A DNA stretch of 36,207 bases from a virus (Duplodnaviria; Heunggongvirae; Uroviricota; Caudoviricetes): positions 1-36,207 of IMG/VR virus record IMGVR_UViG_2541047897_000007; one strand, 5' to 3'. Below the pieces are notes generated by a model. It was not told the origin of the DNA and ran no database searches. It saw only the letters and a list, made by a program, of their open reading frames with translations. Both the position numbers and the translations under genes were made by a program. Shown here one piece after another: positions 1 to 36,207 of the stretch; within the stretch, counting starts at the first letter, position 1; each line of letters starts with the position of its first letter.

Positions 1-1002
1 TTACCCTCTATTGTCAAAAGGGTTCAATTCAACAGCAGCCTCTAAATGACCTGGAGCAAAATGCGCATAACGCATAGTCATTTTTATATCGCTATGCCCC
101 AGTATTTTTTGCAACACAAGAATATTTCCGCCCCGCATCATAAAATGACTGGCAAACGTGTGACGTAGCACATGAGTTAATTGCCCATCAGGAAGCTCGA
201 TCTTCGCTCTCTTAATTGCAGCGTCAAAAGCCTCATAACATGGTGAAAATAGCGCTCCTCGTTTTTTGGGAAGCATAGCCTGCAATTGAGGTGAAATCGG
301 TACAGTGCGGTTCTTCTTTCCTTTAGTTTTAACAAATGTGATTCGACCGGGCAGTACTTGAGATTGCTTTAATCCTTCTGCTTCACTCCACCGAGCACCA
401 GTCGCAAGCCCAATACGGACAACAACCCCCAAATCTTTATTCCGTGACTCATCACACGCAATCAGAAGGCGTTCAATCTCATCTACATACAGAAACGCCA
501 GTTCCTTTTCTTCCTCACGAAACTTGCGAATACCAGTCAGGGGGTTTTCACCAGACCACTCCCCAAGGCGCTTCAGTTCGGCAAAAACAGCATGTAGATA
601 TGACTGCTCGCGATTAACGGTTGCTTCACTAAGTTTTTTCTTCCCCTTGGGATTCCATTCTCCTGATAGCCTTCTTTCCCGATAAGTGGCAAACATATTT
701 TTGTCAAACTGAGAAGCAAATGGATCTCCCAGCCTGGAACAAATCGCCTCAAGTTTGACTTTGCGCTCTGCACCAGAGGACAAGGTTTTACCGTACATCT
801 CAAACCAACGAGCAATCAACTCAGAAAGACGAGGACCAGAACCATCTTGAAACTCGTCTCCAACTCTACTATTCATTAAACGGCGCTCATAAGAGAGCGC
901 CTCACTTTTTGTCGCAAACTGTTTACGAATGCGTTTTCCCGATGCCCCGTAGGGATAACATTCGCAAAGCCATTTACCTGATGGAATCTTACGAACCGAC
1001 AT
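1..1002 (-). CDS. int: tyrosine-type site-specific integrase
   Basis: 333-aa ORF with stop at 1..3; C-terminal catalytic region HVLRHTFASHFMMRGG...RYAHF matches the tyrosine recombinase signature; sits at the prophage end in P2-like orientation. Confidence 0.9.
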   Translation of the reverse strand: MSVRKIPSGKWLCECYPYGASGKRIRKQFATKSEALSYERRLMNSRVGDEFQDGSGPRLSELIARWFEMYGKTLSSGAERKVKLEAICSRLGDPFASQFDKNMFATYRERRLSGEWNPKGKKKLSEATVNREQSYLHAVFAELKRLGEWSGENPLTGIRKFREEEKELAFLYVDEIERLLIACDESRNKDLGVVVRIGLATGARWSEAEGLKQSQVLPGRITFVKTKGKKNRTVPISPQLQAMLPKKRGALFSPCYEAFDAAIKRAKIELPDGQLTHVLRHTFASHFMMRGGNILVLQKILGHSDIKMTMRYAHFAPGHLEAAVELNPFDNRG

Positions 1003-34464: not shown

Positions 34465-35574
34465 ATGACCGACACCACCATGCAATTGCTCAGTCAGGGC
34501 ACAGACCCCGTAAAAATGCCGGATTTTGATATTCTCGCGGAGGGTAAAACGCTGTCAGGCGTGGCAGAGCGCCTGATGAGCCTGTCACTGACCGACAACC
34601 GGGGATTTGACGCGGACCAGCTCACCATCACGCTGGATGATGCGGATGGTCAGTTGCAGCTACCGCCACGGGGCGCGCGCCTGACGGTTCTCATTGGCTG
34701 GAAAGGAGAACCGCTGACAGAAAAAGGCACTTACATTGTTGATGAAATCGCTCACGAAGGACCGCCGGACAGGCTGACTGTTTCAGCCAGAAGCGCAGAT
34801 TTTCGGGATGAATTTAACGTTAAACGTGAGGTGTCCTGGCATGATGTGACCGTTGAGCGTGTGGTATCCGCCATCGCTCATCGGTATGGTCTGAAACCGC
34901 AAATCAGCGAAATGCTGATGGATATCGAAATCGACCACGCCGACCAGACCGAAGAAAGCGACATGTCCTTTCTTACGCGCATGGCGGAAATGCTGGGCGC
35001 AATCACCACGGTAAAAAGCGGTAATCTGTTATTCATTATGCCCGGTGGTGGCGTGAACGCACAGGGCCAGCCGTTGCCATCGTTCGCCATCACACGCAGC
35101 AGCGGCGATCGCCATCAGTTCCGCATTGCTGACCGCGAGGCGTATACGGGGGTACGCGCTTACTGGCTTGATCTTAATTACGGGAAAAAGAAAAAAGTCA
35201 GCGTGAAACGCCGTAAACCGCCAAAACCGAAAAAAGAGAAAAGCAGCAGCCGTGAAGGTGATTATATGGAAGGCGCGGAAGGCAATGTGTTTGTGTTACG
35301 CAAGACTTATCAGAACGAGCAGGCAGCAAGACGCGCAGCGGCGGCAAAGTGGCAACAACTACAACGCGGAGCCGCATCATTCTCCATCACGCTGGCACGT
35401 GGACGAGCAGAACTCTACCCCGAAATGCATGGCACGGTAACAGGCTTTAAAAGCGAGATTGATAATCAGGACTGGATTATTGCGAAAGCCGAGCACACCA
35501 TTGATAACAGCGGCTTTACCACGCAGCTTGAGCTTGAGGCAAAAATCCCGGAATGGATAGCGGAAACAGAGTGA
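34465..35574 (+). CDS. D: tail protein D (late control gene D family)
   Basis: 369-aa product from the ATG at 34465 (GGGAGGGAG RBS); lies immediately upstream of ogr as in P2; a KKKK/basic patch follows in the C-terminal half. Confidence 0.75.
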   Translation: MTDTTMQLLSQGTDPVKMPDFDILAEGKTLSGVAERLMSLSLTDNRGFDADQLTITLDDADGQLQLPPRGARLTVLIGWKGEPLTEKGTYIVDEIAHEGPPDRLTVSARSADFRDEFNVKREVSWHDVTVERVVSAIAHRYGLKPQISEMLMDIEIDHADQTEESDMSFLTRMAEMLGAITTVKSGNLLFIMPGGGVNAQGQPLPSFAITRSSGDRHQFRIADREAYTGVRAYWLDLNYGKKKKVSVKRRKPPKPKKEKSSSREGDYMEGAEGNVFVLRKTYQNEQAARRAAAAKWQQLQRGAASFSITLARGRAELYPEMHGTVTGFKSEIDNQDWIIAKAEHTIDNSGFTTQLELEAKIPEWIAETE

Positions 35575-35616
35575 GCAACTTAGAATAGCGGCAGCACCAC
35601 GTTAAAGGAGGTCGCT

Positions 35617-35877
35617 ATGTTCCGTTGTCCGCTTTGTGGCGCATCTGCCCGTATCCGCACCAGTCGTCCGGAAAATGATTCAAACACCGTGCGGCAAAAG
35701 TATTACCAGTGTAACAACCTGGAATGCGGCGTATGCTTCTCAACACTGGAAGCTTTCCATAAATTCACATCGAAACACGCCTCCGGCGTTCACTCATCAG
35801 AAGGTATCCCGTGGCATGAGCTGCCAGCTTCACACAGGGGAAACAATCAGATGAGTTTGCCTTTACCTCAGAATTAA
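35617..35877 (+). CDS. ogr: Ogr/Delta-family zinc-finger late transcription activator
   Basis: 86-aa ORF; MFRCPLCGASARIRTSR...YYQCNNLECGVCFSTLEAF has the C-x2-C...C-x4-C zinc-finger pattern and matches P2 Ogr as recalled. Confidence 0.85.
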   Translation: MFRCPLCGASARIRTSRPENDSNTVRQKYYQCNNLECGVCFSTLEAFHKFTSKHASGVHSSEGIPWHELPASHRGNNQMSLPLPQN

Positions 35878-36066
35878 CAGGCAGAATTGCCGGAGTAACA
35901 AAAAAGCGATAGATTACGTGCGGGTGCCTTTCGGCTGATGGTCGGAGGGAATACCCGAAGGCCGGATGTGGAAAGGCCCCGGAAAACATTTCTGTTTAAC
36001 CGAGGCCCTAACCCGTCAACCTAGCAAGTGATAGGTTAGCGCCTCTCCAACAAAGGAGCAAGCGCT

Positions 36067-36207
36067 ATGTCGCAAAAATCGCTTACGGCCATCACGTTCT
36101 GCGTGACGGTAATCCTCATCATCTGGATGCTGCACGGTTCGCTGTGTGAAATACGGATGAGCTTCTGGGGAGCGGAGTTTGCGGCGTTCTTACAGTGTAA
36201 GCAGTAA
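36067..36207 (+). CDS. hok: Hok/Gef-family type I toxin (small membrane peptide)
   Basis: 46-aa ORF read by hand; TM helix LTAITFCVTVILIIWML followed by GSLCEIR...EFAAF, matching the Hok signature SLCEIR...EVAAF as recalled; hairpin-rich leader upstream. Confidence 0.6.
   Translation: MSQKSLTAITFCVTVILIIWMLHGSLCEIRMSFWGAEFAAFLQCKQ

Follow-up and report, generated by a model that had tools for sequence, protein, structure and literature searches.

A probable hok/sok-type toxin-antitoxin module without mok, carried as accessory cargo by a P88-like prophage

The stretch of DNA analyzed here (the window, 36,207 nucleotides) ends in a small toxin gene that very probably belongs to a functional type I toxin-antitoxin module of the hok/sok type, which a P88-like prophage carries as accessory cargo. 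A sequence-only reading had proposed a Hok/Gef type I toxin gene directly downstream of ogr, and the protein family, the homology of the leader, a Sok-like antisense gene, and a box able to pair the two ends of the mRNA all agree with it. The finding is correct but ordinary, the module being already annotated and catalogued. It therefore carries little weight as a discovery (the gene is named by PGAP and listed in a hok catalogue), and it invites the question of how such a module might serve a P2-like prophage. Of all features of the locus, only the lack of mok seems to us to deserve follow-up.

The toxin gene occupies the last 141 bases of the window, running from an ATG start to a TAA stop, and encodes a peptide of 46 amino acids (MSQKSLTAITFCVTVILIIWMLHGSLCEIRMSFWGAEFAAFLQCKQ). 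Judged by sequence comparison, its match to the Hok/Gef family is far beyond chance. Pfam HOK_GEF (PF01848) scores 30.1 bits (E 3.7e-7) against a curated gathering cut-off of 22 bits and aligns residues 7-44 with profile positions 5-42 of 42; PHROG 251 matches at E 2.5e-23, and the NCBIfam HokA and Hok models give sub-threshold matches. The “MokW-like” label found in phage records is simply the name of PHROG 251. The RefSeq product beneath 100%-identical DNA is WP_000078920.1, which PGAP names “Hok/Gef family protein”. The Hok signature after a transmembrane helix that had been described in this 46-aa ORF is confirmed: the SLCEIR and EFAAF motifs both come C-terminal to the hydrophobic stretch. 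Residues 6-22 (LTAITFCVTVILIIWML) have a mean Kyte-Doolittle value of 2.58, versus 2.66 for Hok R1, and the peptide has the single N-terminal hydrophobic helix and the size near 50 aa of Hok peptides. It aligns end to end with Hok R1, PndA, HokB, HokC, HokE, and HokW, keeping the Cys/Thr and LCE motifs. The residues found in >80% of Hok peptides are, in logo numbering, M1, C16, T18, L30, C31, E32, and E41 (Escalera-Maurer et al., bioRxiv 10.1101/2025.08.07.668861); in our alignment with nine Hok proteins, M1, C12, T14, L26, C27, E28, and E37 of the window peptide are all kept.

Relatives of the 46-aa peptide were sought by tblastn against phage and plasmid collections, and the locus was aligned with eight relatives and with the RefSeq hokB/mokB/sokB and hokC/mokC/sokC loci of K-12. 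The gene preceding ogr is gpD, and the ogr stop is separated from the hok ATG by 189 bp, which accords with the 190-bp leader given earlier. The -10 element of the putative hok promoter (Table 1) aligns with TATAAT in hokC, TAGGAT in hokB, and TAAATT in phage 933W, each 7-8 nt before a conserved GCGGGTGCC. A consensus promoter scan flagged neither the hok nor the Sok promoter within the locus; both promoters are therefore placed by homology only. The leader matches Rfam model RF01794 over its full length (model 1-157, window 35922..36077; 47.3 bits, E 2.1e-9), a score that lies below the gathering score of 59 and so below the threshold for Rfam membership. This is the only meaningful Rfam match in the region, and it is correctly placed; the model is named “sok”, yet it covers the sense-strand hok leader. 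A hairpin at the ribosome-binding site (RBS) recurs in single-sequence and consensus folds, and the consensus fold also keeps a hairpin at the 5' end. The conserved helices of the leader pair 35923-35932 with 35971-35980 and 36002-36018 with 36029-36045. The inverted repeat noted previously does exist (gcctttcgg, 35926-35934; ccgaaggc, 35955-35962), but its arms pair only with a one-base bulge and do not form a conserved helix.

Table 1. Positions of the features of the hok locus, in window coordinates or, beyond the window end, in coordinates of the RM12581 sequence L003
Feature	Position	Strand	Basis or remark
ogr, late-gene activator	35617..35877	+	PF04606 Ogr_Delta, 52.4 bits
Putative hok promoter	-35 TTGCCG 35887-35892; 18-nt spacer; -10 TAGATT 35911-35916	+	Read from the sequence
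hok mRNA 5' leader, ~147 nt	35920..36066	+	Rfam match; alignment of hokB and hokC leaders
5'-end box GGGUGCCUU, tac-like	35922..35930	+	Exact complement of the 3' box AAGGCACCC
Predicted Sok-like antisense RNA, antitoxin, ~60 nt	35966..36025	-	sokB and sokC ends projected through the alignment
Putative Sok promoter	36033..36061 (-35 TTGCTC 36061-36056; 17-nt spacer; -10 TAACCT 36038-36033)	-	Inferred
hok Shine-Dalgarno AAGGAG	36053..36058	+	8 nt before the ATG; local hairpin with CUCC
hok CDS, 46 codons, Hok cluster 72	36067..36207	+	PF01848 above cut-off; PGAP name
3' box AAGGCACCC	L003 5708-5716 (RM12581), 61-69 nt past the window end	+	Complementary to the mRNA 5' end
GC-rich terminator with T run	L003 5735-5762 (RM12581)	+	Terminator scan; downstream of the 3' box

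Homology and predicted structure point to a cis-encoded Sok with its own promoter and a terminal hairpin. The leader had been likened to the hok mRNA and sok antisense region, and a Sok-like RNA indeed lies at the homologous place: the minus strand of the leader aligns with the annotated sokB and sokC, and the projected ends coincide with theirs, at -42 and -101 relative to the hok start. The predicted RNA has a 5' tail left single-stranded and folds into a strong hairpin (-28.8 kcal/mol, z = -3.3). Comparison of the aligned loci reveals compensatory changes in this hairpin, along with G-U pairs that read as A-C mismatches on the sense strand. Because such pairs are possible only on the antisense strand and are accompanied by compensatory changes, the antisense strand itself appears to be under selection. 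An antisense promoter, which the sequence-only reading had named as something to look for, can be read from the minus strand as TTGCTC-17-TAACCT; it would place the Sok start near 36025, and it occupies the position homologous to the Sok promoter of R1. At this promoter AGGTTAGCG is invariant in 9/9 subfamily loci, and the -35 element of 933W is TTGACT.

The region between the two genes offers a further observation. A consensus scan of the plus strand (RM12581 L003 5250-5900) listed no terminator-like site between the ogr stop and hok, the hok terminator being the first. Across window positions 35878-35920, where no terminator-like site is listed, ogr transcripts could thus enter hok and collide with the convergent Sok promoter. 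Such read-through might tie toxin expression to prophage induction.

The window ends at the stop codon, as had been pointed out, with TAA as its last three bases and the downstream context missing; rightward extension in identical genomes supplied a 3' box and a terminator. Downstream sequence was taken from RM12581 (L003, in which a coordinate equals the window coordinate minus 30559), whose identity to the window extends back to 35484. The last 648 window bases are 100% identical in many Shiga-toxin-producing E. coli (STEC) genomes, and the 3' features are those of genomes identical over these last 648 bases tested, the window's own right flank being unseen. In the minimum-energy fold of the resulting 410-nt transcript the 5' end is closed on the 3' box (z = -6.6), and 0/100 shuffles fold as well. 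The same closure is predicted in four relatives, and upon 3' truncation the 5' end is predicted to refold into the local hairpin of the Rfam model in all five loci. The box is kept where the sequence flanking it diverges between loci: six subfamily loci and hokB all have GCACCC in their 3' UTR, extended to GGCACCC in hokB and in five of the six. As the core pairs are invariant, covariation gives no evidence for the end pairing. These results match the long-range 5'-3' pairing of the tac/fbi type upstream of a terminator; for hok mRNA, such end pairing is the canonical mechanism (PMC1635323). In a simple accessibility model of five loci, the mean unpaired probability of the RBS was 0.36-0.45 in full-length, 3'-truncated, and Sok-masked RNAs, so that neither truncation nor masking by Sok made the site more open.

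The locus departs from the classical arrangement in the lack of mok. In R1, hokB, and hokC, mok starts ~57 nt before hok, where the window reads GAGGCCC-TAA-CCC; we attribute the conservation of GAGGCC at this place to its being part of the Sok hairpin. The overlapping mok-like frame that the sequence-only reading had suggested seeking was not found: in none of the three frames does the stretch free of stops that leads into the hok ATG hold an ATG, GTG, TTG, CTG, ATT, ATC, or ATA. Our search script recovered mokC (-57) and mokB (-58) as positive controls. A canonical start upstream of hok is likewise absent in five other intact relatives, except for a GTG at -5 in pB39V; both IncI plasmid loci have a near-cognate ATA at -17. 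Because no mok frame was found, we assign the protein to the Hok family but class the locus as a hok/sok-like one that lacks mok.

Other short reading frames in the leader were considered as substitutes for mok and rejected. Two upstream ORFs, of 21 codons (35966..36031) and 28 codons (35938..36024), stop 36-43 nt short of hok, and in the IncI plasmid loci only ATG-TAG is left of the 21-codon one. Conservation of a three-codon GTG uORF at 36029 does not extend to 933W. We found no paper on mok-less hok loci, and the existing hok catalogue, restricted to the CDS, leaves mok, Sok, and mRNA structure aside (bioRxiv 10.1101/2025.08.07.668861).

In a locus with no mok, Sok cannot act by blocking mok translation. 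We tentatively propose, as a possibility that we hold to be somewhat doubtful, that cluster 72 (P88-like prophages, Stx phages, and IncI-gamma/K plasmids) is a natural mok-less hok/sok lineage in which the toxin is translated from its own RBS. The Sok-like RNA, 42-101 nt upstream, would repress by RNase III-type decay, by blocking a ribosome standby site, or by blocking the activating refold, and ogr read-through could override Sok at induction and so time Hok to lysis. A mok-less subfamily that is common would be a convenient natural case of Sok-type antisense action without translational coupling.

By homology with R1 hok/sok, these features can be assembled into a working model. The sequence shows that the protein belongs to the Hok family, how the locus is built, that a phage carries it, and that mok is missing; that the two RNAs are transcribed, that the mRNA is processed, and that the phage gains from the module are inferred. 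A weak promoter just after ogr would yield a stable hok mRNA of ~410 nt, which would be inert because its 5' end (GGGUGCCUU) is locked on the 3' box (AAGGCACCC) and its RBS is held in a local hairpin. Slow 3' trimming would free the lock and let the 5' end refold into its local hairpin. A short-lived Sok-like RNA of ~60 nt, made 42-101 nt upstream of the start, would pair with the leader and prevent Hok synthesis for as long as it is made; with no mok to act on, it would presumably work by duplex-triggered decay or by blocking the refold that activates the mRNA. The 46-aa peptide would be made once the supply of antisense RNA stops, be it because the prophage is lost, because transcription is shut off, or because of read-through and interference at induction; it would then insert in the inner membrane via its single helix and kill or lyse the cell.

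The lack of mok also raises the question of whether the toxin is made at all. The peptide could be an intact relic, never translated since the coupling to mok was lost, and it would then be carried along silently, as several hok loci of K-12 are. None of the intact members examined has mok, the RBS is predicted to lie in a hairpin in every modeled state, and some relatives are plainly pseudogenes (the E. albertii plasmid, p388808, and Stx2_481), all of which would fit this reading. We nevertheless regard it as improbable, since the promoter, 5' box, Sok hairpin, Sok -10 element, Shine-Dalgarno sequence, and 3' box are conserved among loci whose peptides are only 48-76% identical, and these conserved loci span phages, plasmids, and chromosomes. 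Moreover, the ORF keeps every family-conserved residue, 79 records match a 648-bp query covering ogr and hok (window 35560-36207) with an identity of 99% or more, and an antitoxin kept beside a silent toxin would be unexpected.

For a functional module, the most likely benefit to the phage is retention of the prophage or help with lysis at induction. The same module could instead serve mainly in abortive infection or exclusion, killing the lysogen once host transcription has been shut off by another, incoming phage. According to the summary given in PMC8621323, R1 hok/sok on a high-copy plasmid lowers the plating and plaque size of T4, and the cargo in the slot adjoining the module varies, being in phage Chuche a com/methyltransferase pair among others. 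However, hokW-sokW, the sole phage-borne hok studied in depth, aided the release of its own phage (PMC8621323). We therefore consider a main role in exclusion unlikely, yet deserving of some weight, and retain retention or lysis as the preferred reading.

It had been left undecided whether the module is cargo at the att-proximal end or the phage had integrated at a chromosomal hok locus. The first of these stands: the analysis settles the module as phage cargo rather than a host locus at the integration site, besides supplying its 3' regulatory half. The position in phage records, together with an att repeat to the right of hok, identifies the module as att-proximal phage cargo. P88-like phage records (Chuche, P88) have the order D - ogr - hok - variable genes - int. 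We mapped the att sites in RM11626-C1, as the left end of RM12581 is not collinear with the window; in RM11626-C1 the int end and the hok end are both 100% identical to the window. The att direct repeat (L005 3254-3377 and L006 2453-2576; the hok stop is at L006 1510) is exact over a 107-bp core, reaches ~125 bp if one mismatch is allowed, and spans the 3' half of the tRNA-Leu gene leuZ. In this genome attL lies 107 bp beyond the int stop and attR 943 bp beyond the hok stop. It is precisely at the att repeat that the right flank again becomes homologous to other phage records. From int to hok, the best-matching genomes, RM11626-C1 included, are 180 bp shorter than the window. By sequence comparison, then, the module is placed as cargo of a P88-like (Xuanwuvirus, P2-like, Peduoviridae) prophage, in a slot between ogr and attP.

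That the hok locus is chromosomal, with the phage integrated in or beside it so that the module belongs to the host, is hardly credible in light of this map. It would account for hok being the last gene of the window, at the end where attR is expected, and for a second, truncated hok leader further right, near leuZ. Against it, Chuche and P88 carry the module with its ~120-nt 3' UTR between ogr and int, and the att direct repeat lies 0.94 kb beyond hok rather than in or next to it. In addition, the ogr+hok query matches up to nine places per genome, versus one place per genome for int, from which we conclude that the ogr+hok piece resides on mobile elements.

Beyond the module the phages diverge. 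Sequence sharing with P88 and Chuche stops ~120 nt past the hok stop, at the end of the hok 3' UTR, and the region from the hok terminator to attP is fully different among P88-like phages (Chuche L001 4650-6130, P88 L002 3651-4396, RM12581 L003 5649-6590). It holds com and a DNA methyltransferase gene in Chuche, another hypothetical gene in P88, and a 93-aa ORF in the STEC prophage. This Cys-rich ORF (L003 5838-6119, minus strand, between hok and attR) has a signal-peptide-like N-terminus and corresponds to WP_071529678.1 and phrog_27544, with no Pfam or NCBIfam family. Between it and attR, ~0.7 kb right of the window end, lies the second, truncated hok promoter and leader of ~105 nt (L003 6352-6455 = L006 2214-2317), which runs from the -10 box to GAGGCCCTA and has neither a hok ORF nor a Sok promoter. 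Its local alignment score is 55, versus 18.5 +/- 2 for shuffles, and it suggests an older hok locus cut by cargo exchange. The ~820 bp containing the 93-aa ORF and the leader remnant had no match in the phage collection, in which only the last 60 bases (the att region) matched.

The window itself starts exactly on the integrase stop codon (1-1002, minus strand) and ends exactly on the hok stop (36205-36207). It looks to have been cut at the gene-call boundaries of a prophage prediction, with the att sites and the hok 3' UTR falling outside. Beside int, on the minus strand at 1008-2035, are genes for a DUF2511 protein (115 aa) and a 216-aa protein without significant family. In P2-like phages this position is that of the repressor side of the immunity region, and RefSeq has a helix-turn-helix protein nearby.

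The module is common in E. coli: ogr and hok occur in one piece in 1158 of 5426 complete genomes (~21%). Related genes of 45-46 aa lie downstream of lom in Stx phages of the 933W/Sp5 type and near ykgM in a 260-kb record listed by PLSDB as a plasmid. In 933W (NC_000924.1 45509-45879; L007 2350-2720), we observed a complete hok/sok-like module of the same 46-aa subfamily just downstream of lom, with a 76% identical peptide, the same leader, and the 3' box GGCACCC. It is distinct from hokW and unannotated in the RefSeq 933W record and in many Stx-phage records. IncI-gamma/K conjugative plasmids (L010, L011; 701-838) encode a 45-aa subfamily member, 87-91% identical, upstream of trbA. This site is presumably where the IncI pnd locus lies. 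As these plasmids carry the same subfamily, one hok lineage is common to plasmids, lambdoid phages, and P2-like phages. Our literature search found nothing specific on hok in P2-like phages or in P88.

Compared with known systems, the locus resembles hok/mok/sok of R1 in several respects: the toxin has one helix and both the C..T and the LCE motif, the leader is long and structured, an antisense RNA of ~60 nt lies in cis equally far from the start codon, the 5' and 3' ends pair, and a hairpin holds the RBS. It differs in peptide sequence (~28% identity) and length (46 versus 52 aa), in lacking mok, in the sub-gathering RF01794 score, and in its carrier, a prophage versus a plasmid. The leaders of K-12 hokB and hokC are collinear with that of the window from the -10 box through the 5' GCGGGTGCC, GGCCCCG, CCGAGGCC, and the Sok hairpin to the Shine-Dalgarno sequence; however, they have mok ATGs at -57/-58, where the window has TAA and CCC codons, and their peptides are only ~22% identical to the window peptide. 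The hokW-sokW locus of Stx2 phage Sp5 is phage borne like the window module, and it has been shown to work as a type I system, switched on when the prophage is induced and increasing the release of phage (Takada et al. 2021, PMC8621323). The window gene is not hokW, since none of the loci contains the hokW primer sequence and HokW, a 51-aa protein with 30% identity to the window peptide, falls in the HokD cluster (35_712); the closer Stx-phage relative is the separate 46-aa gene downstream of lom (76% identical).

The nearest comparison is the protein itself, as cluster 72, WP_000078920.1, and P88 gp52 (100% by tblastn) are the same protein as the window Hok. The preprint catalogue lists this group as the high-abundance cluster 72 and reports hok to be enriched in prophages (Escalera-Maurer et al., bioRxiv 10.1101/2025.08.07.668861, 2026 preprint). 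Peptide 72_1621, cloned and tested there, differs from the window peptide only by V15A, and 72_1589 was tested as well; toxicity is reported for the tested cluster-72 members, and the only peptides named as non-toxic (19_179, 60_1482, and 69_1540) belong to other clusters (bioRxiv 10.1101/2025.08.07.668861). In P88-like phages hok follows ogr as it does in the window, and nothing of substance differs between them.
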